This document shows, piece after piece, positions 4,670-23,038 of a DNA stretch of 64,000 nt. The notes beneath the pieces are model-generated. The model had not been told where the DNA came from, ran no database searches, and worked only from the letters and a program-made list of their open reading frames with translations. The stretch is from the NCBI RefSeq assembly GCF_056712565.1, contig NZ_CM160072.1; one strand, 5' to 3'. The translations under genes were made by a program, and so were the position numbers. How positions within the stretch are numbered: the stretch's first letter is position 1; the number at the start of each line of letters is the position of its first letter.

Positions 4670-4739
4670 TATTCTTCGCGATTATAAAACAATGAATAAA
4701 ATCATTAAAGCATAGACGTTAAATATCCTCAAAATGTGA

Positions 4740-5942: not shown

Positions 5943-6051
5943 ATGAATAGCCGCAGTTTCGCCTCCGACAGAAAATCGGAGCGTGAAATGATATGTTGAT
6001 TTATTATTAATTCGAAAATTACATTCTAATTCATCAGGCATTGATGATTTT

Positions 6052-6090
6052 ATAATAATAAAGGCCGTTCGTTACGGCCTTTATTATTGA
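6052..6090 (-). terminator. Hairpin terminator between the late-region moron and the holin
   Basis: Perfect stem AAAGGCCGT / ACGGCCTTT (6060..6082) with 5-nt loop, flanked by A/T runs. Confidence 0.5.
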
Positions 6091-6093
6091 TAT

Positions 6094-6429: not shown

Positions 6430-6477
6430 ACAACCTCCTTTTTAACTGATATGAGGTTATATAATGTGTTTCAGTAC

Positions 6478-6510
6478 AAGTAAATAAAAACCCGCTCAAC
6501 AGCGGGTTCG
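6478..6510 (-). terminator. tR'-like rho-independent terminator downstream of Q
   Basis: Minus-strand stem AACCCGCT-GTTG-AGCGGGTT followed by a U-rich tract; about 105 nt downstream of the Q stop, where lambdoid PR'/tR' lie. Confidence 0.5.
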
Positions 6511-6614
6511 TGAAAATTATCAACGGCAGACATACAAAGCCCATCGTTGAGAAAATCTTATCCATATTTTTTGAAAAATGCAAGCTTCATGTCACTATCT
6601 TCGGCGAAAATCAC

Positions 6615-7367
6615 TTATCTCGTCACCTTTCTCAATTGTGTTTCAGCATATGCTTCTTCCTGCCAGCACTTTGTTACTAGTTTATCAATTACGTCTGCAT
6701 ATCCTTTGTACCACTGATAATCAGTCAGGTCTGGAACCAGCTTCTGGACATGACGTCGTGCCAGTGTAGTCGGTAAACGGCTAAACCGGTTTCCATTGCA
6801 ACGCCCACAAGTCTTATAAACAGGCGTGCCATGAAGCCGGGTTCTTTTTTCATCCAGGACAATACCTTTACCCTTACACCCTCTGCACGCCGTGCTGACT
6901 TCTCCCTTGCCATGACAATGCTGACACAGTTCCTTCACCCACTCTTCTTTGATAACGGATTCCCCGCTTCTGGAATGTTTCACCACTTCGCGCAATACAT
7001 TATGAAATCCAGTACCAGTACAATGCTCACAGCGAGCCTTACTTGCCGCAGACCTGGAATAATCAGCAAAGGCAAAATTCACAAGGTAAGGGATGATCTG
7101 TAACCGGGTTTCTTCACTCAATTTGTTCAATGTCGGGTTATCCAGTGCCATCGCGTAATTGAGCAGGCCTTCAATCGCAAACTGAGGATCCTGAACACCA
7201 ACTTTTGCCAGGAATAAGGCAAACCCAAGCGGTGCTTTCGACTGCACCATCCCCTGCGCAGCCATTACATCCGTAATTGTTAAACCACCCGAGCCTGTCG
7301 CCGATGCGTCATCGCTCAATTTTGGAGATTTTGGGGAGTAATATTTCGGTAAGGCTTCAAGGTTCAT
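6615..7367 (-). CDS. Late-gene antitermination protein Q-like
   Basis: Multiple CxxC zinc-binding pairs (CEHCTGTG, CQHCHGKG, CRGCKGKG, CGRCNGN); located immediately upstream of tR' and the lysis cassette. Start may be 7409 or internal ATG 7367. Confidence 0.6.
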   Translation of the reverse strand: MNLEALPKYYSPKSPKLSDDASATGSGGLTITDVMAAQGMVQSKAPLGFALFLAKVGVQDPQFAIEGLLNYAMALDNPTLNKLSEETRLQIIPYLVNFAFADYSRSAASKARCEHCTGTGFHNVLREVVKHSRSGESVIKEEWVKELCQHCHGKGEVSTACRGCKGKGIVLDEKRTRLHGTPVYKTCGRCNGNRFSRLPTTLARRHVQKLVPDLTDYQWYKGYADVIDKLVTKCWQEEAYAETQLRKVTR

Positions 7368-7380
7368 GCTCGTTCTCCAC

Positions 7381-8376
7381 TTACACCAGTACGCCAATTG
7401 CCAGCGCACGATCGATAAAACGAAATATCAGCTCCAGCTGGGAGCCATACATCTCTTCAAATGCCACGGTATCCGCATGCAGCTCGTCGTGATGCTTTCT
7501 GCACAAAGGCAACACAAAAAGGTCATGCGCTTTTGTACCCATTCCACCCTGTCCGTGGCCTATCAGGTGGTGGGGATCATCAGCGGGCTTTCCACAACAT
7601 GCACACGACTGTGTCTTAACCCAGCGCGTGTACTTTTCATTAACCCAGCGGCGACGTTTTGGGCGTAACATAAAAGACTCCGGCGACTCCGGATCCACTT
7701 TCAGCGCCAGCACCTTTTTCGCCTTATCCTGGATGATGCTGGTGGCAGGAACCGAAGGCACAAGGTCACTTTCCCGGGTGACAGACGGCACAACAGGCTT
7801 CGGTAATCTCAGTGCCTTACGGGCTGCACTTTCCGGTAAGGCATCCGCCAGATCATTACGAACCAGCCACCAGCACAGTTCCGGCATTGTCACAACGTGA
7901 CTGTCATCAAAACCGAGATCCCGACGCACAACAGACAACACCCAGCGGGCACAGTTATCCGTTGCCATTGATTCCAGCCGTTCCGTGAACTGATCGCGAA
8001 GCAGGTTATCGCAGTGCCAGCACAGACGGATTGCGCCCGGCGCGTGTCGCATTGTGGTCATGTTCTCGCTGTGCCATCCGGAATGAGGCCACTGACAGCC
8101 CTTTTCACGAAGTAACCAGCTTTCAAGACATTCCACACCCCCCGCACGACGAATAACTGCCTCATTGCGGAACACGGCCCGAATGGCAGGATCATCCGCC
8201 AGCGGTTGTGATGCCGCCGGAACGGCACCACTGGCAAAAGATGAATAACGTTCCGGCTCAGGCTCCAGCAGGACACGCCCCTGCATAAACAGGGGCATCA
8301 GCTCTGAACCGGGCCTGAACAATACGATCCCCATACGCGGGGCAATTTCAGGGGTCAGTAGTGCTCTCACGGTCAC
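7381..8376 (-). CDS. DUF968-family protein (YdfU-like) with C-terminal HNH-like motif
   Basis: C-terminal CACCGKPADDPHHLIGHGQGGMGTKAHDLFVLPLCRKHHDELH resembles the zinc-finger/HNH signature of DUF968 proteins of E. coli lambdoid prophages. Confidence 0.6.
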   Translation of the reverse strand: MTVRALLTPEIAPRMGIVLFRPGSELMPLFMQGRVLLEPEPERYSSFASGAVPAASQPLADDPAIRAVFRNEAVIRRAGGVECLESWLLREKGCQWPHSGWHSENMTTMRHAPGAIRLCWHCDNLLRDQFTERLESMATDNCARWVLSVVRRDLGFDDSHVVTMPELCWWLVRNDLADALPESAARKALRLPKPVVPSVTRESDLVPSVPATSIIQDKAKKVLALKVDPESPESFMLRPKRRRWVNEKYTRWVKTQSCACCGKPADDPHHLIGHGQGGMGTKAHDLFVLPLCRKHHDELHADTVAFEEMYGSQLELIFRFIDRALAIGVLV

Positions 8377-8377
8377 C

Positions 8378-9175
8378 TCAATGAACGGTATCGAGCAGCT
8401 TTAACAGCTCAGGGAATCGGGATTCGAAGAAATGCGGCTGCGTCTCGCGCGGATTTGCAGGACTGGTGATGTTCTTGCCGAACATGCAGCCTTTCGCCGT
8501 CAGCGACCAGAATTTTTTGATGTTGTTAATCGCTGTACGGCTGTATCGTTCGCGCTGTTCGACGATCCCCAGCTTCGCCATCTGGTGATATGCCTGATTA
8601 GCCGTAAGGCGGATACCATACTGTTTCAGCAGTGCACTCAGCGACAGTGTCGGGCGACTTGAGCCATCAGGCGCGTCAGCAGGAGCATCAATGGCATAGC
8701 GCGGTGCCAGATTCGGTAAGCCAACAGCCTCCTGAAGCTTCTGACAGGCTCCAAGCACTGATGAGTTAGACAGGTTTAATTCCCGGCGCATAAAGTCCAG
8801 CAGGATCACGCCAGCCTGCATCTTGTCAGCAGCCTGCCCGGATAATTTTTCCGGTGTGCTGGTTACCATATCGAAAGTACGGATCACCTTCAGATGGAAT
8901 GACGGGCTTATCCACATTGCATAGGCATACACCAGTTCTTTGCAGACATACGTCCCCTGGTTATTTCCGCCACGAATAACGTTAACTGGCTCTATATTGA
9001 CCGAGTTGCAAATCTGCAACTCGCTTATTAAACGTTCAGTTTGCTCATTGCGGAGCCAGAATGCAGGCTTATGCTTATCCAGAGAACCGGCAGCCCTGTG
9101 CAGATCGTTCAGGCTGTAACGCCCATAAGCATCACGACGAACTTCAATACCATCAATAACCATCAGATTATTCAT
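8378..9175 (-). CDS. KilA-N domain protein
   Basis: N-terminus MNNLMVIDGIEVRRDAYGRYSLNDLHRAAGS...KPAFWLRNEQTERL is the KilA-N DNA-binding fold common in prophage early regions. Confidence 0.7.
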   Translation of the reverse strand: MNNLMVIDGIEVRRDAYGRYSLNDLHRAAGSLDKHKPAFWLRNEQTERLISELQICNSVNIEPVNVIRGGNNQGTYVCKELVYAYAMWISPSFHLKVIRTFDMVTSTPEKLSGQAADKMQAGVILLDFMRRELNLSNSSVLGACQKLQEAVGLPNLAPRYAIDAPADAPDGSSRPTLSLSALLKQYGIRLTANQAYHQMAKLGIVEQRERYSRTAINNIKKFWSLTAKGCMFGKNITSPANPRETQPHFFESRFPELLKLLDTVH

Positions 9176-9194
9176 ACTTCGTTTCTCCTCTTAA

Positions 9195-9584
9195 TCAGGC
9201 AGCTGCACCCGCCGTTTTCTCGTACTTACTGATAGTGATCTCGACCTTCCCTTCCGGGATAACCGGTCCCCACTCCACCAGCATTCTTTTCACCTGACTG
9301 TCGTCTTCCCACACACCCGCGTGGGTCAGGGCGTCAAACAGCGCCTTGTTATAGTTGTCCAGATCGCGGATCCGGTTATCCGGAGGAAACAACACGATCT
9401 CCACTGAAGCAGGTGCCGACGTTGGTTTTGGCAGACGACGTAACTGCTCAACTATTGCTGCACACGCCGCGCTCTGGAATTTGCGCCCCGCCGCGCTTAT
9501 CAGGCTCTTACCAGCAAACGCCCCTTTGTTGGGGTGTCGCCAGTACGTGTTCACGCTGGGCGGAAACGGCAGAATCAGCTTCAT
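9195..9584 (-). CDS. rusA: RusA-family Holliday junction resolvase
   Basis: 129 aa, MKLILPFPPSVNTYWRH...DLDNYNKALFDALTHAGVWEDDSQV matches the RusA signature. Confidence 0.85.
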   Translation of the reverse strand: MKLILPFPPSVNTYWRHPNKGAFAGKSLISAAGRKFQSAACAAIVEQLRRLPKPTSAPASVEIVLFPPDNRIRDLDNYNKALFDALTHAGVWEDDSQVKRMLVEWGPVIPEGKVEITISKYEKTAGAAA

Positions 9585-9907
9585 ACTTTCAGGCCCCTCT
9601 CATGTAACCAGTGGGCTGCACGCAGCCTGGCGTTTTCCTTACCGGCAAGCAGTGAGCGGATAATCCCGACCGCCTCGCTGTCGTCGTCCTTCACCGCGGT
9701 ATGAAGAGTGATACCCCGGGCCACGCCACGCTTTATCGTGATGACGCCTTTTTTCTCCAGTGCTCGAAGATGCTCCACCGCTGCATTCACTGAACGGTAT
9801 CCCAGCATGGTTGCCACCTCCTGATTGGTTGGCGGGAAGCCACGTTCTTTCTGATAAGAAATCAGCATATCCAGCACCTGCTGCTGGCATTGAGTTAACG
9901 TCGTCAT
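9581..9907 (-). CDS. LexA-type DNA-binding domain protein (no S24 peptidase domain)
   Basis: 108 aa resembling the LexA N-terminal winged-helix domain (LTQCQQQVLDMLISYQKERGFPPTNQEVATMLGYRSVNAAVEHLRALEKKGVI) but ending before any autocleavage domain. Confidence 0.5.
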   Translation of the reverse strand: MTTLTQCQQQVLDMLISYQKERGFPPTNQEVATMLGYRSVNAAVEHLRALEKKGVITIKRGVARGITLHTAVKDDDSEAVGIIRSLLAGKENARLRAAHWLHERGLKV

Positions 9908-10590
9908 GCCGCCATCTCCCTGAGCAGTTTTTCCGCCTGCTGGCGAACCTGCGCCAGAAACGCCTCACCACATGCCTCAAGTTCATCGCGCCCGATGTAG
10001 CTGATTGCCGGTCCCTTCCAGGTCTTGTCAAAAACAGCAATAGCACCAGCGAAGAAAGCTCCTGTCGGCACCTGCTTCTCGTCTTTCGGGATAAACCAGA
10101 CAGGCAGTTCAAAACCAATACGCCCGCGAATAAAAGCAATATGATCTGCATCTTCCGGCCACCACACTTCGCTGGTGGCAGCTTTGATCAGGAAAACATA
10201 GCGCCCGCCTTTATCACGCATGGCACTGGCATGCTTCATGATGTAACGCATGCCGGTGATGTATTGCCCCTCATGCTGACTGGCGCGGCTGTATGGGGGA
10301 TTACCAAAGGCAGCACCTTTAAGCTCCGCAAGACGTTCTGACCAGTCATGCGCCAGCGCATTGTCTTCCGCCGTGTAATACGCGGCACATTTGGCGTTAC
10401 CACCGTCGGTGAACAGATCCAGAACAAACGGGCCAAACAGGGTGTTAATTCCCCAGAAAATGTTGTCCGGCGTGCGCCACTGATCGCCCACTTCCTTCAG
10501 TTCATGGGCTGGTTTGTTCCGCAGCTCCACCAGCACCTGGCAATATTTATTACTCATTAAGCCCCCACGTAATTCCCTGACAGATACCAC
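9904..10590 (-). CDS. Phage DNA N6-adenine methyltransferase (Dam-like)
   Basis: 228 aa with the amino-methyltransferase catalytic motif NPPY (GAAFGNPPYS). Confidence 0.8.
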   Translation of the reverse strand: MVSVRELRGGLMSNKYCQVLVELRNKPAHELKEVGDQWRTPDNIFWGINTLFGPFVLDLFTDGGNAKCAAYYTAEDNALAHDWSERLAELKGAAFGNPPYSRASQHEGQYITGMRYIMKHASAMRDKGGRYVFLIKAATSEVWWPEDADHIAFIRGRIGFELPVWFIPKDEKQVPTGAFFAGAIAVFDKTWKGPAISYIGRDELEACGEAFLAQVRQQAEKLLREMAA

Positions 10591-11051
10591 TCTTCACCCG
10601 ATGCAGCGCGCTTGCTGCTTTTCCGTAAGCACCGCTCACGACGCGCCAGAAAATTGTTTCGTTCTGGCTGGGAGTGGCTTTCACGGAATGCCGCCATCCA
10701 CACGGTTGCAGCACGACGGTATAAACCCCTGGACTCCAGTTCTTCAGCCTGGCGGGTCAGGCACAAAATCACCCGTGGATCGTTAGTGCCGACATAGAAA
10801 TTGCGCACAGGTCTGGTTTCTCGAACTGGTTGTGGTTCCGGTTCCTGCGCTCTCTCAGTCAGGCGCGGGAAATGTCTGCGTGTATCTCCTTCACAACGGT
10901 GAGCCACACGCCCACTCTGACGTAACTTGCTTGCTGACTGCAGAACGCGCTGTCGTGAGTAACCTGCAAAAGCATCCGCAATGTCACCGGAAGTACACCC
11001 CGGATGGGCTTCAATGAATTTCTGAACGTCATTTAACAGACTCATGATCAC
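10557..11051 (-). CDS. Hypothetical prophage protein, possibly PerC-like regulator
   Basis: 164 aa; central region (LTRQAEELESRGLYRRAATVWMAAF) resembles PerC-family activators; weak assignment. Confidence 0.4.
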   Translation of the reverse strand: MIMSLLNDVQKFIEAHPGCTSGDIADAFAGYSRQRVLQSASKLRQSGRVAHRCEGDTRRHFPRLTERAQEPEPQPVRETRPVRNFYVGTNDPRVILCLTRQAEELESRGLYRRAATVWMAAFRESHSQPERNNFLARRERCLRKSSKRAASGEEWYLSGNYVGA

Positions 11052-11989
11052 CCCCTGAATCCTGCCGGGATCTGGCTGTAGTCCACGTTGTCGTAACTGG
11101 CTTTGAAGTACGGGTCCTCGCGTTTTTCGGTGTACGTACTTACGGACGGCGATAAGCGCAGGGAAAGCTCATCCCATTTTTCCCGCAGCTTCGACGGGCT
11201 GAGCACGTTACGGCACCAGAACGGATCGCGGCTGACGCGGCTGTACATCTCGCAGATTTGTTTGTGAGTACGACCATCCTGCACACACATCAGGCGAATT
11301 TCGTTTGCCCAGGCTGTCCAGTTCGGTTCTTTGGGACGAACCACCTCGCCGTCACATTCGGCAGCCTGCTCGTACAGGGCGATGATTTTTTTCCAGAGCC
11401 ACTGTGCGCAGGTCAAATCATCCTGCGTTCCCCACTGGCGCTTTTTAGGGCTGAATACAACAGCATCAGGATGGCGAGTTAAAAACTCCTGTTCAGCCGT
11501 CTGCGTGTCCGGTTGCGAAGCGTCCGGACGAGAAGTTTTTTTATCTGACGGATCATGTTTTGATTTTACTGACGGATCCCCGCCAGATTCTGACGGGTGA
11601 AAACCCGCTTTTTTGCCAGATTTCGACGCATCAAATTTTGACGGGGCAGATTTTGATGCGTCAGATTTTGACGGGTCAGAATCTGACAGTTGAGAAAATG
11701 CCGCTGCCTGAAGCTTCGCAACGTTAAGCTGATAAACATTCGACGCATTGCGGTTACCCTGGCGACGCGCCTTACGCGTTAACCAGCCTTCTGCTTCCAG
11801 CCGTGCGATAGCCGTTCTGACGGTACTCATCCCCGCGCCAATCTGGCGGGCAATGGTTTCAATTGATGGCCAGCACACACCTTCGTCATTACTGAAATCA
11901 GCCAGGCGGGCCATAATTGCCACGCTGGATAACTTCATGCCTGACGCAGCGCAACCATCCCATACATAGCCGGTTAATTTAGTGCTCAT
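11048..11989 (-). CDS. Phage replication initiation protein (HTH N-terminal domain, repeat-containing linker)
   Basis: 313 aa; N-terminal winged-helix region (CWPSIETIARQIGAGMSTVRTAIARLEAEGWL) typical of lambdoid O-like initiators; internal repeat peptide DASKSAPSKFDASKSGKK encoded by tandem DNA repeats. Confidence 0.65.
   Translation of the reverse strand: MSTKLTGYVWDGCAASGMKLSSVAIMARLADFSNDEGVCWPSIETIARQIGAGMSTVRTAIARLEAEGWLTRKARRQGNRNASNVYQLNVAKLQAAAFSQLSDSDPSKSDASKSAPSKFDASKSGKKAGFHPSESGGDPSVKSKHDPSDKKTSRPDASQPDTQTAEQEFLTRHPDAVVFSPKKRQWGTQDDLTCAQWLWKKIIALYEQAAECDGEVVRPKEPNWTAWANEIRLMCVQDGRTHKQICEMYSRVSRDPFWCRNVLSPSKLREKWDELSLRLSPSVSTYTEKREDPYFKASYDNVDYSQIPAGFRG
11541..11692. repeat. Iteron-like tandem repeats inside the replication gene (putative origin)
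   Basis: About eight imperfect ~15-bp direct repeats with core (c)AGATTTTGACGG, e.g. agattttgatgcgtc / agattttgacgggtc / agaatctgacagttg contiguous at 11648..11692. Confidence 0.5.
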
Positions 11990-12333
11990 GACCGACCTCT
12001 ATTTCCCTGAATTTACGACGAAACTGTTCGAGCGGACTGAAGCATTCATGCTCATAGCCTTCGCGGAGGTAGATAACCCGTTGTGTTTCCGGTTCCCAAC
12101 GAATGACTCTGACGGGCACTCCGTAGTGATCTTTGAACCAGCGGTTAACTTGTCGCAAAGGACTGTCTCCTTCTGCCGGTTGAAATCACCCACAGCCCAC
12201 TCAGCAAAGCTGTGGGTTACAATTTCCCTGTCACCTGGTACATTTACTGCATAGCAATACTCCACCTTCGCTTTTCCACCCGGTACAGGAAGCGCAATCA
12301 GTTGCGAGCGACGGTAGTGTGTTGTTAAACTGT

Positions 12334-12897
12334 TCATGCGTTAGTTTCTCCACAGTCACGACACGCCACGGCGCCCGGAGCTGCACACTCGCGGGCGTCA
12401 CTACTTTCTGAAACGCAAAAGATTTTGTAGACCAGTGCTGCATGCTCCTGCAGCTTCGAAATTGAGAGGTACAGCTCATCGTTAATTGCTGTCTTCTCAT
12501 GCGGTTCCACTACACCGTCTTCAATTGCTGAACGAATCTGTTTTGAATAACTGCCGATCTGTTCAATGACCTCCAGCAGGCGTTGGTTGATATCGGCGTT
12601 GTCCACATCCTCGACGTCAGGAAGAGACACAAAGACGCCATTTGCAGACTGCGCCACAGCATCAGCAATGAAGTGAGTGCCACCAGCACGCTGTAAAACC
12701 ATTGCCCATCCCAGCGGGAAAATCTGATCGCCATCTGCACGAAGGCGGTTGAATAAAGCGTTTTCTGTTACATCGAGCCAGTCAGCCGCTTCAGCGTAAC
12801 CACCCGGCAACGCCGCGATCGTTTTTCTGGCAGCTTTCACGTACCACTCAGGCTGTTTTTCTATTTTCCAGTGATGCTTACCCACGATTAGCCTCAT
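12334..12897 (-). CDS. Prophage regulatory protein, CII-like / YdaT-like
   Basis: 187 aa immediately downstream of the cro-like gene in the rightward early operon; family call is weak. Confidence 0.4.
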
Positions 12898-12928
12898 CGT
12901 TCTGTGGTTAAAAATTGAAAGTGTTCTG

Positions 12929-13129
12929 CTAATCTTTCGGATAGATATCCGGTCTTAAGTCAGATTTCGTAATTGCACCTGACGTGCATTGCTCAAGTTT
13001 TTTAGCCAGCACAAAACTGGCTTTTTTATAGCCATTGAAAACCAGCCGTAAGTAGCCAGGTGTTGAGCCAACTTTTCCGGCCAACTCGCCCTGCTGTTCT
13101 TTGGTTAAAGAGTCCCAATACGCTTTCAT
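12929..13129 (-). CDS. Cro-like HTH regulator (YdaS-like)
   Basis: 66-aa protein transcribed divergently from the CI-type repressor with a palindrome-containing intergenic region between them. Confidence 0.6.
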   Translation of the reverse strand: MKAYWDSLTKEQQGELAGKVGSTPGYLRLVFNGYKKASFVLAKKLEQCTSGAITKSDLRPDIYPKD

Positions 13130-13219
13130 ACAATGTGTACCTCAGGTGTACATATTACATGATTGAAATGAACCTTCAAGATACTTGTACCTTAACGGTA
13201 CAAGGGTTTTAATTTCGTT
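13130..13219. promoter_or_regulatory. Immunity-region operator/promoter between cro-like and cI-like genes
   Basis: Two palindromes sharing a GTAC core: TGTAC-N7-GTACA (13136..13152) and CTTGTACC-N5-GGTACAAG (13184..13204), in a 90-bp AT-rich divergent intergenic region. Confidence 0.55.
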
Positions 13220-13894
13220 ATGAAAACAATCCATGACATCCGGCGGTCTAACGCCAGAAAACTGAGAGATGGTGTTGGCGGGAATTCTTCCTTTGCCACT
13301 ATGATTGATCGCGAGCCAACCCAGACCAGCAGGTTTATGGGAGATGGTGCTACTAAAAATATCGGTGACAGCATGGCACGACACATCGAAAAATGTTTCG
13401 ACCTGCCTGTCGGATGGCTCGATCAAGAACACCAGACAACGAACATCACAAAAAAACCTGATGTTTCAATCACTAATAAACAAATCACATTAGTCCCTGT
13501 CATATCATGGGTACAGGCCGGAGCATGGAAAGAAGTTGGATATTCTGAGGTTGATTTGAGCACAGCAGAAACGTATCCCTGCCCTGTACCCTGTGGGGAA
13601 ATGACTTATATCTTGCGGGTGATAGGTGATTCAATGATTGATGAGTACCGCCCGGGAGACATGATTTTTGTCGATCCTGAAGTACCTGCCTGCCACGGTG
13701 ACGACGTTATTGCATTGATGCACGATACAGGTGAAACCACCTTCAAAAGGTTGATAGAAGATGGGACACAGCGTTATCTCAAAGCGTTAAACCCAAACTG
13801 GCCTGAGCCTTACATTAAGATCAACGGTAATTGCTCTATAATTGGTACTGTGATTTTCTCAGGAAAACCAAGAAGATACAAAATCAAAGCCTAA
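13220..13894 (+). CDS. CI-type repressor with S24 (LexA-like) autopeptidase domain
   Basis: 224 aa; N-terminal HTH region and C-terminal S24 domain with catalytic serine context VIGDSM. Confidence 0.85.
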   Translation: MKTIHDIRRSNARKLRDGVGGNSSFATMIDREPTQTSRFMGDGATKNIGDSMARHIEKCFDLPVGWLDQEHQTTNITKKPDVSITNKQITLVPVISWVQAGAWKEVGYSEVDLSTAETYPCPVPCGEMTYILRVIGDSMIDEYRPGDMIFVDPEVPACHGDDVIALMHDTGETTFKRLIEDGTQRYLKALNPNWPEPYIKINGNCSIIGTVIFSGKPRRYKIKA

Positions 13895-13907
13895 TCAATG
13901 TTTATGA

Positions 13908-13929
13908 ACCTGCTTCGGCAGGTTTTTTT
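13908..13929 (+). terminator. Rho-independent terminator after the repressor gene
   Basis: Stem ACCTGC-TTCG-GCAGGT followed by TTTTTTT. Confidence 0.6.
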
Positions 13930-14046
13930 ATACTTGACAATGTACCTTTGGGATACATAATGTACCCAAGAGAAACAACAAACAGGCAGGACGCCCACGA
14001 AGTAGCCGCCTGGGGCATATGAAGTCCAGGATGATTCGTTAGCAAC

Positions 14047-14075
14047 AAAAAAGCGCCCTATAGGACGCTTCGCTC
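14047..14075 (-). terminator. Terminator hairpin downstream of 14097..14609
   Basis: Minus-strand stem AAGCG-N10-CGCTT followed by a U-rich tract. Confidence 0.4.
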
Positions 14076-14096
14076 TTTAACAATCTGGATGACTTA

Positions 14097-14609
14097 TTAC
14101 TCAGATTTGAACTTTGGTTCTGGCAAAAGAGGAGGAGTTGAGTCCTCGAATCGTAGCCAGTGCTCCCAGATATCGTGGGATTGTAATTCCAGAAGACCAA
14201 TTTGACGTGATGCAACTGCAGTGCCAGCTATAGTTCCTCCTGCATAATCAACCTGGACGGACTTTGACGCTTTCTCAATTAATTCTGTCCAAGCTTCACT
14301 TTCCGCGTTAAAAGAAGCAGTTAATTCCTGCAGACGCTGTGGATCATCCTTGTTGTCTTGTTTCAAACGATTCAGGGCGGCCACCGAATACTTATTCTTA
14401 ACCCAACTAACCTGAGCTAACTGAACTCTCTGACAAGCGTCCATATCAGTAGTTGTTTCCTGAGGCATATCAAAGCAGGAAATAAAAAAAGTCTCAACAC
14501 CATCATTTAGACTACTGCTCGGCTGGTTCAAAGCATCAGAAGCATTGGATGCTATCGGTATTATCAGTGCTACCGACAGAATCAAACGTTTAACATAAAT
14601 CGCTCCCAT
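14097..14609 (-). CDS. Secreted/periplasmic protein with cleavable signal peptide (possible DUF1311/LprI-like)
   Basis: N-terminal KRLILSVALIIPIASNA-SD looks like a Sec signal peptide with an AxA-type site; two cysteines in the mature part; low GC; convergent with the repressor gene. Confidence 0.45.
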   Translation of the reverse strand: MGAIYVKRLILSVALIIPIASNASDALNQPSSSLNDGVETFFISCFDMPQETTTDMDACQRVQLAQVSWVKNKYSVAALNRLKQDNKDDPQRLQELTASFNAESEAWTELIEKASKSVQVDYAGGTIAGTAVASRQIGLLELQSHDIWEHWLRFEDSTPPLLPEPKFKSE

Positions 14610-14896
14610 TTAATTATCCCCTCTAAGAACAGAGTCATCCAGATTAGCCGAATCCTTGTTGTTGGGGAATAACCAGGCCCACCTCGCCTGATGTGGCTAA
14701 AAGCAGGCACATAACAGCTAAGTATTTTCAACCAGAGAGAATCCTTAGCGTTGTGGTGAATGCGGCTCAGCGCACGCGGGTTAAGGTTGAGGCTGACAGT
14801 CGACCTTCTGTGGATACCCACCCGCCTGGTGTGCAACCTTCGCCAGGCACCGGGAGGCACCCGGCACCACAACTTTATGCTGTGTGTAGTCCTGGC

Positions 14897-14940
14897 GGTA
14901 CCAGCTTGTACCCTTGCTTCCGGCTGGTACCGCTCTTTTT
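14897..14940 (+). terminator. Terminator-like hairpin in the noncoding region upstream of the yfdP-like gene
   Basis: Perfect 9-bp stem GGTACCAGC / GCTGGTACC (14897..14905 and 14923..14931) followed by CTCTTTTT; the stem also carries GTAC motifs like the immunity-region operators. Confidence 0.4.
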
Positions 14941-15077
14941 ACAAAACAGAGAAGAGCATCACCGGACGACGGGCTCATAACCCAATCCACCCGGGCGGCT
15001 GCCACCGCAGGTGTTCTTCTCTGTTTTGTGGAGAAACCAACCGACCTTGCAGGGTCGATATGATGAGGAGCAGCAAA

Positions 15078-15440
15078 ATGGCTAGCGAACGCAGTACCAA
15101 CGTGCAGGAATTTATCGGGGAGCTGGACGGCGGCGTATTTGAAACCAAAATCGGCGCAGTTCTCAGTGAAGTCGCTTCCGGTGTGATGAACACGAAAACC
15201 AAAGGTAAGGTCTCGCTCAACCTGGAAATCGAACCGTTTGATGAGAACCGTGTGAAAATAAAACACAAACTCTCATATGTTCGTCCGACTAACCGCGGGA
15301 AAATTTCCGAAGAAGACACCACCGAAACGCCGATGTATGTCAATCGCGGTGGTCGCCTGACTATTCTGCAGGAAGACCAGGGACAATTACTGACTCTTGC
15401 CGGTGAACCTGACGGAAAACTCCGCGCAGCAGGTCATTAA
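15078..15440 (+). CDS. YfdP-like prophage protein
   Basis: ~120 aa starting MASERSTNVQEF..., with GAGGAG RBS 7 nt upstream; directly precedes YfdQ- and YfdR-like genes as in the E. coli CPS-53 prophage. The longer ORF from 14760 is an unlikely extension. Confidence 0.5.
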   Translation: MASERSTNVQEFIGELDGGVFETKIGAVLSEVASGVMNTKTKGKVSLNLEIEPFDENRVKIKHKLSYVRPTNRGKISEEDTTETPMYVNRGGRLTILQEDQGQLLTLAGEPDGKLRAAGH

Positions 15441-15505
15441 TATCGTTCTTAATTAACTGATTATTTATCTCATCACTGAATATCTTTATATAGTGAGGAC
15501 TTATT

Positions 15506-16330
15506 ATGTCTCAGAACTTAGACGCAACCGCAATTAATCAAATCCATGCCCTTATTTCTGCTCAGGGTGTTAATGAAATTATCAGTAAGATTGGTGCCGA
15601 CGCAGTGGCATTACCTGAAAATTTCCGCATTCATGATCTGGAAAAATTTAATTTAAATCGCTTCCGTTTCCGTGGTGCGCTTTCCACTGCCAGCATCGAT
15701 GACTTTACCCGTTATTCTAAAGATCTTGCGGATGAAGGCACCCGCTGCTTTATCGATGCCGATAATATGCGTGCCGTCAGTGTGCTTAACCTGGGTACTA
15801 TTGATGAGCCTGGTCACGCAGATAACACCGCCACTCTCAAACTGAAAAAGACAGCACCGTTCTCTGCTCTGTTGTCTGTTAACGGCGAGCGTAACTCCCA
15901 GAAGTCACTGGCAGAATGGATTGAAGACTGGGCCGACTACCTTGTGGGCTTTGATGCTAATGGTGATGCCATTCAGGCAACAAAAGCGGCTGCGGCAGTC
16001 CGTAAAATCACGATTGAAGCAAACCAGACCGCTGATTTTGAAGACAATGACTTCAGCGGCAAACGCTCCCTGATGGAGTCTGTCGAAGCGAAGACCAAAG
16101 ATATTATGCCAGTGGCATTTGAATTTAAATGCGTTCCGTTTGAAGGCCTGAAAGAACGTCCGTTTAAATTACGCCTCAGCATTATCACTGGCGATCGTCC
16201 TGTACTGGTTCTGCGCATTATTCAGCTGGAAGCAGTGCAGGAAGAAATGGCTAACGAATTTCGTGATCTGCTTGTTGAGAAATTCAAGGACAGCAAAGTA
16301 GAAACCTTTATTGGTACTTTTACCGCCTGA
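15506..16330 (+). CDS. YfdQ-like protein (DUF2303)
   Basis: 274 aa, same length and gene neighbourhood as E. coli YfdQ. Confidence 0.65.
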
Positions 16331-16457
16331 TTTCATTACTGCAAATGCCCCTGCGGGGGCATTTATGGAAACGTAATTGACTCAATAATCGCCGGATGGT
16401 GAGGGCTTTCTTTTACCAGAATTCAGCGCGGTGCAGCGCATATACGTGGAGAACAAA

Positions 16458-16982
16458 ATGTCATTTATTAAAACTTTTTCCGGGAAGCATTTTTATTATG
16501 ACAGGATAAATAAAGACGACATCGTTATTAACGATATCGCGGTTTCTCTTTCAAATATCTGTCGCTTTGCAGGACATCTTTCACATTTCTACAGCGTCGC
16601 CCAACATGCGGTGCTTTGCAGCCAACTGGTACCGCAGGAATTTGCTTTTGAAGCGTTAATGCATGATGCAACAGAAGCGTATTGCCAGGACATCCCGGCG
16701 CCACTGAAACGCCTTCTTCCTGACTATAAACGGATGGAAGAAAAAATAGACGCCGTAATCCGTGAGAAATACGGGTTACCCCCGGTTATGAGTACGCCCG
16801 TGAAATATGCCGATCTCATCATGCTGGCAACCGAACGCCGCGATCTCGGGCTTGATGATGGCTCTTTCTGGCCCGTACTGGAAGGTATCCCGGCAACAGA
16901 GATGTTCAAAGTTATTCCACTGTCGCCAGGCCATACCTATGGGATGTTTATGGAACGCTTTAAAGAGTTAACTGAGTCGTAA
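16458..16982 (+). CDS. HD-domain 5'-deoxynucleotidase, YfdR-like
   Basis: HD motif (ALMHDATEAYCQDIP) and histidine-containing N-terminal region; start MSFIKTFSGKHFYYDR preceded by GGAG. Confidence 0.7.
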   Translation: MSFIKTFSGKHFYYDRINKDDIVINDIAVSLSNICRFAGHLSHFYSVAQHAVLCSQLVPQEFAFEALMHDATEAYCQDIPAPLKRLLPDYKRMEEKIDAVIREKYGLPPVMSTPVKYADLIMLATERRDLGLDDGSFWPVLEGIPATEMFKVIPLSPGHTYGMFMERFKELTES

Positions 16983-17090
16983 AAATCAGCACGTACGAAT
17001 TCAAACTCTGCCATAAAAGAACATATAAGTAATTTATTAACATATAGATATAGGTTATATTACAAATTGAAAAATTATTGGAGAGCAACA

Positions 17091-17957
17091 ATGAATCAAA
17101 ATCCATTCTCATTCTATGACTTTCTTGGATATTTAATACCAGGTGGTTTTTTTATCCTATTAATGTATTTCTGTGGTTTGACATTCGATCTAGATATTGT
17201 TATTGACTTAAGTGAATTGCTCAGAGGTCAAAGTCAAATCTTTGGCATTTTGAACTACGCTTCAATAGTTATTATATCTTATATAGCTGGACATTTTATT
17301 TCTATCACGTCAGCATTTTTTATCGAAAAATACATGAATAAAGAATTAGGATATCCTTCCAAATATCTATTTAAAAAATTGATAGATACCTCAGAAAGCA
17401 TTTGTAGCCCATCATGCGATGAGAGAAGCGCTGATAAAAAAACAAAAATAAAGAATCGCATAATCAAATGCGTATTATGTCCAATAATACTATGGGATTT
17501 TATAACACAAAAACTATGTTATTCTCAATCTCTACCATTTCATTTAGCTAATACAACATGGTTAATGATCAAAGAAGGTTATGAGAAAAAGTTCATAACA
17601 AATCGCCAATTATTACAAGATAAAAACGGACTTGATGATGATCTCTTCAGATTGGCATATCATTATGTTTATGAGTTTTCAAAACAACATCAAACAAAAA
17701 TTCAAAACTATGTTGCATTATATGGTTTTTGCAGAAACATATGTTTAATCTTTATAATTTCATTTTGGGTATCAGTTCCAACCTTTATTTATCGATTATG
17801 TACTCATAGTGATTATCTTTATAGTTTACTTTCAATAATGCTTAGCTTTTTCTTCGTCTATGTTTTCTATGTTGGTTTTGTTAAATTTTATAGAAGATAT
17901 ACTTTAGAAGTATTAATGGCATTTGCTGTACTTCAAAGTAACGACACTATTCGTTAA
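17091..17957 (+). CDS. Integral membrane protein, very low GC (candidate exclusion/abortive-infection moron)
   Basis: ~288 aa from ATG 17091 (RBS GGAGAG); two predicted TM helices at each end with a ~130-aa soluble central region; strongly AT-rich codon usage. Confidence 0.5.
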   Translation: MNQNPFSFYDFLGYLIPGGFFILLMYFCGLTFDLDIVIDLSELLRGQSQIFGILNYASIVIISYIAGHFISITSAFFIEKYMNKELGYPSKYLFKKLIDTSESICSPSCDERSADKKTKIKNRIIKCVLCPIILWDFITQKLCYSQSLPFHLANTTWLMIKEGYEKKFITNRQLLQDKNGLDDDLFRLAYHYVYEFSKQHQTKIQNYVALYGFCRNICLIFIISFWVSVPTFIYRLCTHSDYLYSLLSIMLSFFFVYVFYVGFVKFYRRYTLEVLMAFAVLQSNDTIR

Positions 17958-17998
17958 TAATGTTGCTCCCGTGTGCAGACGGGATAATGGAGAAACGT

Positions 17999-18205
17999 AT
18001 GCTGAACCTCGATTGTGTTCCTATCTCAACTTATTGCAAAGAAACTGGCGAAACTCCTGAAGCAATAAACAAACGTGTACAGCGCGGTGTTTGGCGTGAA
18101 GGTGTTCAGGTTTTAAAGGTTGAAGGCGTTAAGGAGAGGTGGATTGATCTTAGTGAGGTTGCAAAATGGGCCAGACAAAACTGCTCAAACTACCGCGCGG
18201 CGTAA
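17999..18205 (+). CDS. Excisionase-like protein
   Basis: Small basic protein directly upstream of and overlapping the integrase gene; GGAG RBS 8 nt before ATG 17999 (alternative start 17987). Confidence 0.55.
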   Translation: MLNLDCVPISTYCKETGETPEAINKRVQRGVWREGVQVLKVEGVKERWIDLSEVAKWARQNCSNYRAA

Positions 18206-19338
18206 CAATCAGGAAACACCACCAGGGAGAAACGATCAATATAACTTTCACCTACAAAGGAGTTAGATGTCGTGAGCCGCTTTCCAATCTGGAAGTAACA
18301 CCAAAGAACATTAAATACGCCGAGCGTACACTCGGCGAAATCCATAATAAGATCGAAAGGGGAACATTCATTTATGCAGAATATTTTCCCCGTTCTGCTC
18401 GTTTGAAAATTTTTGGTAATGCTGCTGCAAGCAAAACGGTAAAGATGTACCTGGACGAATATCTTGAAATCTGCGAAACAAGAAAACTTTCACCCTCTAC
18501 GATTGGTGGCTATAAAAAATGCCGTAGTGCGTTAGCCTCACTTCACATTTGCCCTGCAAGTGAATTAACACCAGCAACCCTGAAAGCGTGGATTCAAAGC
18601 CAGAAAACAACCTTAAAAACCATTCGCAACCAGTTATCTTTCCTACGGTCAGCACTTGATGAAGCCGTGACCGATGGGGTACTTCAAATTAACCCCGTAT
18701 CGTTAGTAACAGCTTCGCGCTACCAAAGTGATAAGTCAGAAGCAGAAAGCAGCTATGTGGTTGATCCGCTATCACCAGCAGAAGTTGATGCATTACTAGC
18801 AGCAGCCGGAAACAAACAATGGGAAAATCTGTTCCGGTTCGCCATACATACAGGCCTGCGTAGTTCTGAATTATGTGCCCTACGATGGCATGATATCGAC
18901 TTTGTTGGAAAAACAGCCCATGTTCAGAGCGCAAGTGTTGTCGGAGTTATCAAAGGAACAAAGACAAAAGCCGGTACCCGTAAAGTTGAACTGACTGAAG
19001 AAGCAATGTTGGCGTTGATAAACCAGAAGCCATTTACATTCATGAAGGATGCTACTGTCTTTGAAGATCCAAAGACCAATAAACCCTGGGCAAGTGCTGA
19101 TGCAATTAGGAAAAAAGCATGGGTGCCAACATTGCGAAAAGCAGGTATTCGTTACAGAAACCCATATCAAACCAGGCATACATTCGCCACCAGCCATATC
19201 AGCCGGGGAGCAAACCTGTTTTGGCTTGCGGCTCAAATGGGCCATAAAGGGCCTGAAATGTTATTCAGGCACTATGGACAATACTTGAAAGAGTATGATG
19301 GGAGGGCAAGTATCAAGGATAAAAAGGCTTTATTTTAA
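18166..19338 (+). CDS. Tyrosine integrase (phage integrase family)
   Basis: 390 aa with catalytic-domain signatures (LRSSELCALRWHDID; HTFATSHISRGANLFWLAAQMGHKGPEMLFRHYGQY), reading toward the att remnant. Confidence 0.9.
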   Translation: MGQTKLLKLPRGVTIRKHHQGETINITFTYKGVRCREPLSNLEVTPKNIKYAERTLGEIHNKIERGTFIYAEYFPRSARLKIFGNAAASKTVKMYLDEYLEICETRKLSPSTIGGYKKCRSALASLHICPASELTPATLKAWIQSQKTTLKTIRNQLSFLRSALDEAVTDGVLQINPVSLVTASRYQSDKSEAESSYVVDPLSPAEVDALLAAAGNKQWENLFRFAIHTGLRSSELCALRWHDIDFVGKTAHVQSASVVGVIKGTKTKAGTRKVELTEEAMLALINQKPFTFMKDATVFEDPKTNKPWASADAIRKKAWVPTLRKAGIRYRNPYQTRHTFATSHISRGANLFWLAAQMGHKGPEMLFRHYGQYLKEYDGRASIKDKKALF

Positions 19339-19947
19339 GTCATTATGCCAATCGTCTACTGTTTGAAACCAAATTTTTAACCTTTGCATAAAGGTACGAT
19401 CCTTTTTGGGAGGGTGGTACCTTTGAAAAGAAGTATGTAACGCTTCGATAACTCCCATACAAGCATCAATTACTTCTTGTGCTTTAACCGGGCGATCGGC
19501 ATCTGAAAGCTTGTGAGCGACCTCACAATCCAGAGTTGCTTTCTCTAGTACAGATGAGAACACCTCGTCAGGTATATACAGTCCTCTGCTTTCCAAAATG
19601 CAAATCAGTTTGGAAACTTGTTGAGCTTTAGCCAAGATAGTTAACAAGTATGAAACAGAAGCCTTTGTTCTATCCTTTTGCAACCTTAACAATCGATGCT
19701 TTGATGCTCTAATTTTAGGTTGAGTTGTCTGACTGAGCCAATAGTTAGAAGAAATATCAGAAATTTCAATAACTAACTTTGAAATAGCATCAATAATTGA
19801 TTTCGATTCAGAACGTGTCGCCAGTTTTACAGAATTATTGTACGCAACTCGCCATCCAATGAAAACTAAGCAGACGCTAACTACTGTGATACACCACGAA
19901 TACTGTCCTATTTGTGCTACTAATGACATTGGTTCCGTACTGATCAA
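19330..19947 (-). CDS. Membrane-anchored protein, third gene of the integrase-proximal cassette
   Basis: 205 aa; single N-terminal TM helix (YSWCITVVSVCLVFIGW) then a ~170-aa soluble domain with no recognisable motif; 3' end overlaps the integrase 3' end; 10-bp gap to the upstream gene. Confidence 0.5.
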   Translation of the reverse strand: MISTEPMSLVAQIGQYSWCITVVSVCLVFIGWRVAYNNSVKLATRSESKSIIDAISKLVIEISDISSNYWLSQTTQPKIRASKHRLLRLQKDRTKASVSYLLTILAKAQQVSKLICILESRGLYIPDEVFSSVLEKATLDCEVAHKLSDADRPVKAQEVIDACMGVIEALHTSFQRYHPPKKDRTFMQRLKIWFQTVDDWHNDLK

Positions 19948-19957
19948 CTATCGCCTC

Positions 19958-20284
19958 TTATACTCTTTCTGGTTGTGCTAAATCAATAAATTTATCAATC
20001 TGTTCTTTGTAGAACGGAACATCACTTTTTATAATCAAACGTGCTTTAACGTTGGCTTTAGGTATCCCTTCCTTACGGATGAGACCTCCAAACGCCTCTT
20101 CTAAGAAAGAGGAACCAACACCCAGTGCTATACCGCGAAAATCAACCACAATCTCCTGTTCAGTACCCTTCAGCGCAGGCACCAAAAACTCTCTACGAAA
20201 TCTTTCCGCACTGTGTGGGCTATCCGTTGTGTAACGTCCGAAAGGTGTTCTGGAGAACTCCTTCGCTATGACGATATTTCTCAT
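19958..20284 (-). CDS. Small STAS-like protein (DUF4325-like), second gene of cassette
   Basis: 108 aa; segment EIVVDFRGIALGVGSSFLEEAFGGL resembles the STAS-like DUF4325 proteins that I recall pairing with GHKL ATPases; 4-bp gap to the upstream ATPase gene. Confidence 0.45.
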   Translation of the reverse strand: MRNIVIAKEFSRTPFGRYTTDSPHSAERFRREFLVPALKGTEQEIVVDFRGIALGVGSSFLEEAFGGLIRKEGIPKANVKARLIIKSDVPFYKEQIDKFIDLAQPERV

Positions 20285-20288
20285 AAAA

Positions 20289-21200
20289 TCATCTCCTGGG
20301 AACCAGCGACCATTGTAGTAAAGTACCCGGTATGTACTCAGCTAGCTTCTCACATCGAGGACTACTGTCATTAGAATTATAGCTATAACGAGCCCTTCCT
20401 ATTAGTATCAGAAGTGTCTCATTATCCTCACAACCTGCCCCAATAGGTCTCTTGATATCTTCAGAGCCATTTCCCCGTCCGGAACCAACAAAGCGGGATT
20501 CCCCTACTAACATAGCTCTTTCCACAGAAGATACTTCGTTTTGAATGCTATGACCATCACCATTAGGCACGAAACTTCTATAAATCCCCAATCCAAGGTC
20601 ACAAACGATAAAAACGACTTTATTTTCATCACGATTGAACCAAGCGCACTGCCACCATCGTTTACCTTTGAGAAGCTGAATATCTGACTCGAACCCCTCA
20701 TCTTCATACGCATGATGAGAAACATTGAGCAAAGCTTCACTAATCGCTGTCAGCAGTAAGCCTAACTGTTCATTATTAAGCAGAGCACTTTTCTGCAGCA
20801 TGAGTACTGTTTCAACAATATGCTCGTAAGGTTCGACAGCTGACTGAAAGTATCGTTCCTCCCTCGTAAGTGCATTCAGTTTCTCTTCTGTGCCAGCAAG
20901 CAAAGCACGAGCAAGTCCAGTACCAACGATCCATCTATGCCCAGATGGGTTATCATCCTTTTTAGGCCATTTAAAACGTATAAAATTAGGGTCCCGGGTT
21001 AAAAATTGAGCTCTATTTACTATGGCAAAGAACAGTACCGATGCCGCAGCTGAGGCAAATTTTACCTTGGACAAATCAACTATAACTCGACCTTTATTTT
21101 TTACTCCAATCGATTCAATCGAGTTGATGAAGTTCAATGTCCCAGCCCTAGAATCATCTGAGTAAATGCAAAATTTGCTTGGGGGTACCAGTATGGTCAT
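20289..21200 (-). CDS. GHKL (Bergerat-fold, histidine-kinase-like) ATPase, first gene of cassette
   Basis: 303 aa; N-box-like EALLNVSHHAY, G1 box VCDLGLGI (DxGxG), G2-like GSGRGNG; ~130-aa N-terminal extension of unknown fold; AT-rich promoter-like region upstream (21201..21340). Confidence 0.6.
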   Translation of the reverse strand: MTILVPPSKFCIYSDDSRAGTLNFINSIESIGVKNKGRVIVDLSKVKFASAAASVLFFAIVNRAQFLTRDPNFIRFKWPKKDDNPSGHRWIVGTGLARALLAGTEEKLNALTREERYFQSAVEPYEHIVETVLMLQKSALLNNEQLGLLLTAISEALLNVSHHAYEDEGFESDIQLLKGKRWWQCAWFNRDENKVVFIVCDLGLGIYRSFVPNGDGHSIQNEVSSVERAMLVGESRFVGSGRGNGSEDIKRPIGAGCEDNETLLILIGRARYSYNSNDSSPRCEKLAEYIPGTLLQWSLVPRR

Positions 21201-21351
21201 AGCGATGTCATTCTTATACGATGGATTTATAGATTATCTACTATTCATAGTTGGTTATGAAGACTGGGATATAACAGTAAAAGATACGTGTAAGATCCGC
21301 AAGATAGTTAATGTCGAAAAAATCATTAATTACATCAAGTTAGTGATATTT

Positions 21352-21376
21352 GGACTCGGGTTCAACTCCCGCCAGC
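21352..21376 (+). other. Partial copy of the ssrA (tmRNA) 3' end: prophage att remnant
   Basis: GGACTCGGGTTCAACTCCCGCCAGC matches the E. coli tmRNA 3' end (GGACGCGGGTTCAACTCCCGCCAGC, recalled from memory) with one mismatch; upstream sequence does not match the tmRNA body, so this is a fragment. Confidence 0.6.
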
Positions 21377-21506
21377 CAATCATGATTGGACGGTGTAAGG
21401 ACTACACCAACAAAAACAGGAAGTTATAAGTCTCAGCAGGACACCGACCAGACGGTGAGGAGACAAAAAAGGATACGCAACGGAGTCGCGACTCCCTATG
21501 ACATTA

Positions 21507-21531
21507 AAGCCCGCTGATGCGGGCTTTTTTA
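21507..21531 (+). terminator. Rho-independent terminator
   Basis: Stem GCCCGC-TGAT-GCGGGC followed by TTTTTT, about 130 nt beyond the ssrA-like fragment. Confidence 0.55.
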
Positions 21532-21899
21532 TTGGTCCTGACCCGCCCTGAATAGAATTCATCCAATTACAGTCCAGACATATACAGTATCCCTCAGCTC
21601 AGTATCAGCTTCTCGACAAATGGTCACTGTTATTTACCCGTTGCCAGAAAGAGAATAATTTGCCCCCATAGCCAGCCTTCCCGGAATCTGTATATTCATT
21701 AATATTGTTATCGATTCCATCAAGTAACATAGGTTGGATGCGATTGATCTTACTCACATTAGTCGACACGGAACTCAGTAAGTTGAACTCTGAAAAAGCA
21801 GTTTAAATAGCATTTAAACAAATGCCACCAGTTCGAAAAAGAGTATAAGCACACTTAATATATTGTTTTAATTATTCATTTCCTTTCAACCCAATTCTT

Positions 21900-23038
<1,139 letters not shown>

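Follow-up and report, generated by a model that had tools for sequence, protein, structure and literature searches.

The gene cluster yfdP–yfdQ–yfdR raises the question of which of its genes belong together and what their products do for the phage that carries them. It was analysed at positions 15078–16982 of a 64,000-nucleotide (nt) stretch of contig NZ_CM160072.1 (assembly GCF_056712565.1), hereafter the window. A sequence-only reading had proposed a three-gene module there in the leftward early operon of a prophage, with an HD-domain enzyme that could alter nucleotide pools during lysogeny or early infection and a DUF2303 protein as its partner. The true unit proved instead to be the yfdP–yfdQ pair, with yfdR as a frequent but exchangeable neighbour. 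The three genes are as follows:

15078–15440, plus strand: yfdP, 120 amino acids (aa); PF27127 / phrog_204; steady upstream neighbour of yfdQ
15506–16330, plus strand: yfdQ, 274 aa; DUF2303, PF10065 / phrog_210
16458–16982, plus strand: yfdR, 174-aa HD-domain phosphohydrolase; phrog_318; facultative neighbour of yfdPQ

All three lie on the plus strand, and their products are 97.5% (YfdP), 99.3% (YfdQ) and 93% (YfdR) identical to those of Escherichia coli K-12 MG1655, which bore out the likeness to the co-directional CPS-53 set. DNA homology to CPS-53 spans 15059–16977 at 96% identity and covers exactly yfdP, yfdQ and yfdR. The end of yfdP and the start of yfdQ are 65 bp apart. For yfdR, RefSeq places the start at the ATG at 16458 (174 aa), and a longer open reading frame (ORF) begins at a GTG at 16431 (183 aa); its product differs from K-12 YfdR at a few internal positions and diverges at the C-terminal end, over the last ~10 residues. 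The G+C content of the three genes is ordinary (0.45–0.47), and that of the adjoining 296-aa ORF is low. The segment 14900–17100 is 100% identical in DNA to E. coli ATCC 11775, S88, APEC O1, UM146, IHE3034 and others, genomes described as B2-phylogroup E. coli, and at the matching coordinates of these chromosomes RefSeq gives the names yfdP, yfdQ (YfdQ family protein) and yfdR (5'-deoxynucleotidase). Among 5426 complete E. coli genomes, a match to the locus DNA was present in 3052.

All three are orthologues of genes already named and annotated, yfdP, yfdQ and yfdR. The cluster as originally pointed out is already known, with genes annotated in thousands of genomes and DnaA binding published for YfdR, and it has been noted as common in lambdoid early-left operons (PMC12315714). 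The addition made here is modest: a pairing rule for yfdP and yfdQ, together with a pointer to PDB entry 9o7m.

YfdQ matched PF10065 (DUF2303) over residues 7–272 of its 274 (E=2e-92; 309.7 bits, with a curated cutoff of 26.6), i.e. over its full length and above threshold, and also matched phrog_210 (E=2.6e-120). YfdP was placed in its family by a match to phrog_204 (E=2.7e-49) and by its position directly upstream of the DUF2303 gene. Both PHROGs, listed as of unknown function, are among the lowest-numbered families of that collection. The Pfam copy searched did not include the new family PF27127, and its assignment to YfdP follows a precomputed match on proteins 98% identical to it; NCBIfam held nothing for YfdP or YfdQ. 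The YfdQ family comprises 1467 clusters when 1.84 billion representative proteins are grouped at 50% identity, and almost all have a length of 260–290 aa. A plasmid function was ruled out for YfdQ, which occurred in just 23 of 72,556 plasmid records, mostly mislabelled chromosomes or megaplasmids.

The yfdP–yfdQ pair and its optional neighbour

Co-occurrence was assessed in 82 loci, of which 80 came from a one-genome-per-species collection and two from the phages CP2 and VvAW1, and whose ORFs were searched with profiles of the three proteins. The 80 genome loci span Enterobacterales, Pseudomonas/Stutzerimonas, Marinobacter, Vibrio, Alcanivorax and others. A YfdP-like ORF stood directly upstream of YfdQ on the same strand in 78 of the 82, with gaps of 4–67 bp in most loci and an overlap with an over-called yfdQ start in two from Marinobacter. 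The remaining four comprised three loci with the YfdQ match at the contig start and one with a truncated yfdQ copy only. A YfdR-like ORF was found within 5 kb downstream in 54 loci and was absent from 28; it was adjacent in roughly forty and lay 0.5–2 kb away in several, mostly from Pseudomonas. The unit is the yfdP–yfdQ pair, because YfdP is constant upstream across loci while YfdR comes and goes. YfdS and YfdT were rejected as conserved partners, as only 4 of the 82 diverse loci carry either.

The same pairing was seen in phages. The pair occurs in Xanthomonas phage CP2, Vibrio phages VvAW1 and 24E30.2, Pseudomonas phage pAN and ArgO145, and in 24E30.2 and ArgO145 it stands without YfdR. Strict linkage of the two genes thus extends from prophages of enteric bacteria to phages of Xanthomonas and Vibrio, while YfdR is optional. 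They are passed on as a unit in prophages of Gammaproteobacteria and in some phages of ~37–43 kb that appear to be non-lambdoid; the latter encode no YfdR-like protein nearby. Phage-database records of YfdQ (184) and YfdP (181) showed an identical host breakdown, whereas the 337 records of YfdR-like proteins came mainly from phages of Bacillus, Caulobacter, Rhizobium and Stenotrophomonas, taxa not listed among the YfdQ carriers.

Sequence divergence followed the same pattern. Pairwise divergences of YfdP and YfdQ were correlated at r=0.92–0.93, compared with 0.78 for YfdQ and YfdR (0.53 among closer relatives). Among 44 locus pairs with YfdQ more than 85% identical, YfdR fell below 70% identity in 14 and YfdP in none. 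Of 80 viral-contig loci from IMG/VR, all with 100% identical YfdQ, 79 carry yfdR.

In the co-occurrence check suggested by the sequence-only reading, DUF2303 and YfdR-like proteins thus stand together in 54 of the 82 loci, but YfdR is missing from 28 and abundant in phages of taxa not listed with YfdQ. Because yfdR occurs and is exchanged independently of yfdPQ, an outcome that reading had itself named as contrary to a three-gene module, the module was not retained, and the constant partner of the DUF2303 protein is YfdP rather than the HD protein. It follows from the pairing rule that YfdP should be studied with YfdQ, and not YfdQ with YfdR as in earlier work.

Position in the prophage and a candidate early promoter

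The first ~19.3 kb of the window are a lambdoid prophage beside glaH–lhgO–gabDTP. It carries head genes of the HK97 type together with lysis genes, a Q-like antiterminator and RusA, and has both a replication region and an immunity region of e14/SfV type. The locus is best explained as cargo of the early-left (pL) operon in a lambdoid prophage of the SfV/CPS-53 type, carried by a B2 E. coli chromosome. The order along the plus strand is repressor, terminator, promoter-like site, yfdPQR, 296-aa ORF, excisionase and integrase, in agreement with the leftward early position assigned earlier. The relevant features are as follows:

13220–13894, plus strand: CI-like repressor (YmfK-type, HTH and S24 peptidase; Pfam Peptidase_S24, E=1.5e-26)
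13906–13925, plus strand: Rho-independent terminator 3' of the repressor gene (GAACCTGCTTCGGCAGGTTT then TTTTATAC)
13934–13961, plus strand: candidate pL promoter (TTGACA-16-CATAAT, 11/12 match in a promoter scan)
13941–13957 and 13961–13977: operator-like sites (TGTACC-N5-GGTACA) overlapping or abutting the candidate pL promoter
16344–16367, plus strand: GC-rich hairpin just 3' of the yfdQ stop, with a 9-bp stem, AAATGCCCC-TGCG-GGGGCATTT, then ATGG
17960–18205, plus strand: excisionase (phrog_2917, E=8e-45)
18166–19338, plus strand: tyrosine integrase (Pfam Arm-DNA-bind_2, N-terminal, and Phage_integrase)

The repressor gene is named 'ymfK LexA family protein' in RefSeq, and its SfV homologue is annotated cI; the SfV annotation also places a terminator 3' of cI, matching the position found here. 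The candidate promoter was the best match in the region and the sole strong one upstream of yfdP. The operator-like motif TGTACC-N5-GGTACA matched five times in the 64-kb window at up to two mismatches, all inside 13136–13977. Apart from the two sites at the promoter, two lie between cro and cI (13136–13152 and 13186–13202) and the fifth (13585) falls within the repressor gene. From these consensus matches, pL at 13934–13961 is predicted to be repressor-controlled. In silico, yfdPQR thus combine a position between repressor and integrase, on the same strand, with a place downstream of a promoter that shares operator repeats, as expected of lambdoid early-left genes. They are probably early lytic genes rather than lysogeny genes, because the operator-like repeats overlap the upstream promoter and share their motif with the cro/cI region. 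Action during lysogeny, one of the two possibilities put forward in the sequence-only reading, is not supported by this arrangement.

The same arrangement bears on the view that yfdPQR are fitness genes (morons) expressed in the lysogen and aiding host stress tolerance, which we regard as extremely improbable. K-12 strains deleted for CPS-53, yfdQ or yfdS have been described as sensitive to H2O2, acid and methyl methanesulfonate (MMS), according to the work cited in the relevant passage of PMC4776307, as this view would predict. The K-12 immunity region is deleted, however, so that expression there says little about an intact prophage, and the genes of the window lie downstream of an operator-overlapped promoter and have ordinary G+C, unlike the adjoining low-GC ORF.

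Two known elements share this layout. The CPS-53 (KplE1) cluster of K-12, yfdP–yfdQ–yfdR–yfdS–yfdT, has in common with the window the three genes, their order and their place between the immunity region and xis/int. The active temperate Shigella phage SfV runs cI, terminator, orf33, terminator, orf32–orf28 (equivalent to yfdP–T), xis and int, with the same arrangement as here. The window departs from both in that yfdS, yfdT and torI are replaced by the low-GC, membrane-like 296-aa ORF and a different xis/int; tblastn with K-12 YfdS, YfdT and TorI gave no match in the window. Another difference from CPS-53 is that the prophage here has kept its genes for immunity, replication, lysis and the head. 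Excisionase and integrase, whose ORFs share 40 nt, close the early-left operon; this pair differs from the TorI/IntS pair of CPS-53, the yfdPQR block being joined to another integration module.

A looser counterpart is the exo–xis region of phage lambda (ea22, ea8.5, orf60a–63), which has the same early-left map position near xis/int and is poorly understood, but no homology to its genes was found in any search. The lambda exo–xis region has been linked to the host cell cycle. The paper describing the Ea22 structure lists the YfdR paper among its references.

Further observations concern the intervals around the genes. Directly upstream of yfdP lies a GC-rich segment of ~440 bp (14620–15063) with no clean ORF, which is common to SfV/SfIV-type phages and in which RefSeq calls a frameshifted hypothetical gene (14753–15063). 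The corresponding interval of SfV, between cI and orf32 (yfdP), carries a second annotated terminator. The hairpin at 16344–16367 was present in both the minimum-free-energy and the centroid fold; the terminator scan made no call there, its T-tail being weak. The gap between yfdQ and yfdR is typically ~100–136 nt in enteric relatives, and the hairpin is possibly a leaky terminator that would separate yfdPQ from yfdR transcriptionally. An Rfam search of 12000–23000 gave no match.

Possible activities of the products

YfdR has the H...HD...D metal ligands that define the HD metal-dependent phosphohydrolase superfamily. In at least 95% of 53 relatives, these residues (H50, H69–D70 and D119) as well as R36, F37, E73 and D78 are conserved; among the relatives is PDB entry 2gz4 (Atu1052), which, rather than YfbR, is the closest solved one (E=3.6e-12). 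Judged by these positions, the catalytic residues of an HD phosphohydrolase are intact in YfdR, and the HD-domain assignment made earlier was upheld. YfdR is annotated as a 5'-deoxynucleotidase, which is also the RefSeq name of the K-12 orthologue, and the PHROGs family is called 5'-deoxynucleotidase or deoxynucleoside monophosphate (dNMP) phosphatase. The label itself originates from work on the K-12 protein.

On the profiles searched, however, YfdR is not a YfbR equivalog, because its scores fall under both curated cutoffs: 24.2 bits for the Pfam YfbR-like family PF12917 (cutoff 25.9) and 20 bits for the NCBIfam YfbR equivalog NF003009 (cutoff 122). E. coli YfbR shares the HD-superfamily fold and the H...HD...D ligands, and K-12 YfdR has been called a structural homologue of it (PMC4776307). 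Apart from the family scores, K-12 YfdR differs from YfbR in an additional DnaA-binding activity and in a much lower nucleotide affinity, as stated in the passage of Noguchi & Katayama (PMC4776307) that cites Zimmerman 2008.

A distinctly unlikely explanation is that dNMP dephosphorylation by YfdR shifts nucleotide pools, as a defence against superinfecting phages or as counter-defence, with the DUF2303 protein as partner. PADLOC-DB 2.0 contained no family matching YfdP, YfdQ or YfdR at E≤0.01, so that by this comparison yfdPQR would not be part of any known defence system in that database, and the activity demonstrated for YfdR is DnaA binding. The intact catalytic residues and the RefSeq and PHROGs names do agree with dephosphorylation, and YfdR-like proteins are encoded by numerous large virulent phages, a group in which genes of nucleotide metabolism are common. 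The scores under both YfbR thresholds and the low affinity reported in the cited passage speak against it, as do the operator-overlapped promoter, which argues against expression in the lysogen, and the pairing of DUF2303 with YfdP instead of the HD protein. Moreover, destruction of dNMPs amid the phage's own replication would seem counter-productive. On balance, none of the present results favours the nucleotide-pool idea.

The DnaA-related activity was described by Noguchi & Katayama 2016 (PMC4776307), who isolated yfdQRST as a multicopy suppressor of hda-185 over-initiation. Suppression required yfdQ, yfdR and either yfdS or yfdT in multicopy and reflected a block of initiation at oriC; replication from oriC in vitro was likewise inhibited in extracts with an excess of YfdQRST, and deletion of yfdQRST had no effect (PMC4776307). 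K-12 YfdR was found to bind DnaA domain I at Phe46, in moderate competition with DiaA and DnaB, and the authors suggested that a phage could use this binding, like lambda P, to favour its own replication (PMC4776307). They likened this binding to the action of Bacillus subtilis SirA, of E. coli Dps and of lambda P (PMC4776307). SirA and Dps, like DiaA in excess, are binders of DnaA domain I that block initiation. YfdR differs from all of these in being an HD enzyme with no sequence or fold relationship to them, and in that its effect needs YfdQ plus YfdS/YfdT at high copy. Of this inhibitor set, the window contains yfdQ and yfdR (99.3% and 93% identical to K-12).

For YfdQ, a profile search of PDB sequences returned a sole match, 9o7m ('YfdQ Protein'), an unpublished entry with 36 chains of one YfdQ sequence, which is 98.8% identical to YfdQ of Xanthomonas phage MET23-P3; the same search gave no match for YfdP. 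The fold library searched ends in April 2026, and 9o7m is outside it. In the fold libraries and family profiles searched, neither YfdP nor YfdQ had an informative structural relative or a family that would give an activity. The 36 chains indicate that YfdQ forms a large high-order oligomer, and 9o7m may hold the key to its assembly. The entry probably does not stem from a virion or recombination-complex deposit, because no same-phage PDB entries were found for Erf, ORF36 or the capsid protein of CP2-like phages. Its example chain is 'C', and chains A and B may, speculatively, be non-protein. As regards biology, the DUF2303 protein gp10 of phage JC1 co-purifies with CsCl-banded virions, for which its authors suggested DNA association (PMC9144972), and plaque production by phage SW1 in K-12 is reported to require yfdQ (preprint, bioRxiv 10.1101/413146), which would suit a role in trans that favours the phage.

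Our tentative preference is for early genes whose products influence DNA replication or DNA metabolism. Once the prophage is induced or a cell infected, yfdPQR would be transcribed from the repressor-controlled promoter at 13934–13961, and the targets of their products would be DNA replication or DNA metabolism of both host and phage. YfdR would bind DnaA domain I and thereby hinder DnaB loading at oriC and DnaA-dependent initiation, and could possibly also dephosphorylate dNMPs weakly. YfdP and YfdQ would form a large oligomeric complex alongside the DNA-handling functions of the phage, a role suggested by their context. Such a role in DNA metabolism is proposed because the two are strictly linked, because they lie near DnaQ-like, single-stranded DNA-binding protein (SSB), Erf/RecT and exonuclease genes, and because YfdQ forms a large assembly. 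A DnaQ-like exonuclease family was found near the pair in 26 of the 80 genome loci, and SSB, Erf/RecT and exonuclease genes flank it in CP2, VvAW1, 24E30.2, pAN and ArgO145.

Several points weigh against this proposal. The initiation block was seen at overexpression only, and its authors conceded a possible artefact; yfdP was dispensable for it; and pull-downs showed no strong binding of YfdQ to YfdR or to DnaA (PMC4776307). The required yfdS or yfdT was absent from the window by tblastn and from 78 of the 82 diverse loci, so that the published block may not operate in the present prophage. The contact between YfdP and YfdQ is a prediction from linkage, and the promoter and operators are likewise predictions from consensus matches. 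No fold or family match in the libraries searched gives either protein a biochemical activity. Finally, the correlated divergence of the two could arise from tight linkage in mosaic phage genomes alone.

Context could also be taken to mean that YfdP–YfdQ provide an unrecognised recombination, repair or DNA-end-binding function, e.g. an annealing or end-protection complex, with YfdR as unrelated cargo, which we judge unlikely. The pair lies beside Erf/RecT, exonuclease and SSB genes in CP2, VvAW1, 24E30.2, ArgO145 and JC1, and the virion association of JC1 gp10, with the DNA association suggested by its authors (PMC9144972), would suit such a function. Weak sensitivity to MMS and H2O2 upon yfdQ deletion, as cited in the relevant part of PMC4776307, would also agree, as would, speculatively, non-protein chains A and B in the 36-chain 9o7m. 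No recognisable Rec module is present in this prophage, which is Chi-rich, or in those of the LLS/ST64B type. Yet yfdP and yfdQ, described as without known function, were considered unlikely to be hidden recombination genes since ArgO145 has both in addition to a full Rec module (PMC12315714).

Chi sites (GCTGGTGG) numbered 10 in the 19.3-kb prophage (1–19340), eight of them on the minus strand, compared with 8 in 44.7 kb of host DNA (19341–64000), and the early-left operon contained no exo, bet, gam, erf or recT. Chi enrichment without Rec genes fits the Chi-rich lambdoid class with 'no Rec module' of PMC12315714. According to the passage of that paper citing Bobay 2013, lambdoid (pro)phages without a recognisable recombinase are also without a recognisable anti-RecBCD gene, by homology; such homology-only counts neither support nor exclude a Gam-like, RecBCD-inhibiting role for the pair.

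Very unlikely, in our estimate, is that YfdP–YfdQ are an anti-defence device, i.e. an inhibitor or sponge that neutralises host immunity early in infection. Anti-defence genes usually turn over fast, and this family is unusually conserved and syntenic, with 1467 same-length clusters and a constant partner; nor was similarity to known anti-defence folds found. Early timing in an accessory-gene-rich part of the operon would nevertheless suit such a device, as would the high-order oligomer of YfdQ, the lack of any host-like enzymatic family match, and the presence of the pair in temperate phages as well as in others that have no integrase annotated in its vicinity.

Returning to early genes that act on DNA replication or DNA metabolism, a side observation concerns the disordered C-terminal tail of YfdP, whose residues 101–105 (window 15378–15392) form a conserved Q-G-[QN]-L-[FL]. 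L104 and F/L105 are near-invariant in 181 sequences, the motif is present in 153 of them, and Pseudomonas members have T in place of the first Q. The peptide weakly resembles the beta-clamp-binding pentapeptide Qxx[LM]F, a likely chance match that we treat as a lead. More specifically, and doubtfully, YfdP–YfdQ could be a two-protein early phage machine, with folds unlike the solved structures searched and a very large YfdQ oligomer, that would act on the host replisome or on replicating DNA, possibly via the YfdP tail and the beta clamp. YfdR would then belong to a group of accessories that can replace one another, and the two-protein machine would represent a new class of host-replication takeover device. 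If the pair does target host replication, this would account for many of the "unknown" early genes that Shiga-toxin and serotype-converting phages carry as a large block.

Neighbouring elements

The 296-aa ORF at 17067–17957 (plus strand; 28.7% G+C) has the look of a membrane protein and sits where CPS-53 and SfV have yfdS/yfdT. It matched phrog_12528 (function unknown) and, weakly, the type VI-B CRISPR-associated membrane protein Csx27 of PADLOC (E=1.4e-5), and it was found in none of the 80 IMG/VR loci whose YfdQ is identical. The gene was probably acquired as a moron and may serve exclusion or defence.

A 170-aa protein is encoded antisense at 14097–14609 (minus strand), between the candidate pL promoter and yfdP, with its own terminator at 14071–14050. 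It has a signal-peptide-like N-terminus, a weak match to LprI (lysozyme inhibitor) and a match to phrog_7681, and its gene looks like a moron expressed in the lysogen and inserted in the early-left operon.

Just beyond the integrase, a low-GC islet of three genes occupies 19330–21200 (minus strand). The predicted proteins are one of 205 aa whose N-terminus is hydrophobic and which matched no family, a STAS-like protein of 108 aa (DUF4325), and one of 303 aa with a sub-threshold match to a histidine-kinase-like ATPase. None of the three matched PADLOC; the islet is reminiscent of a partner-switching module and, given its place at the attachment site, could have a defence role not yet catalogued.

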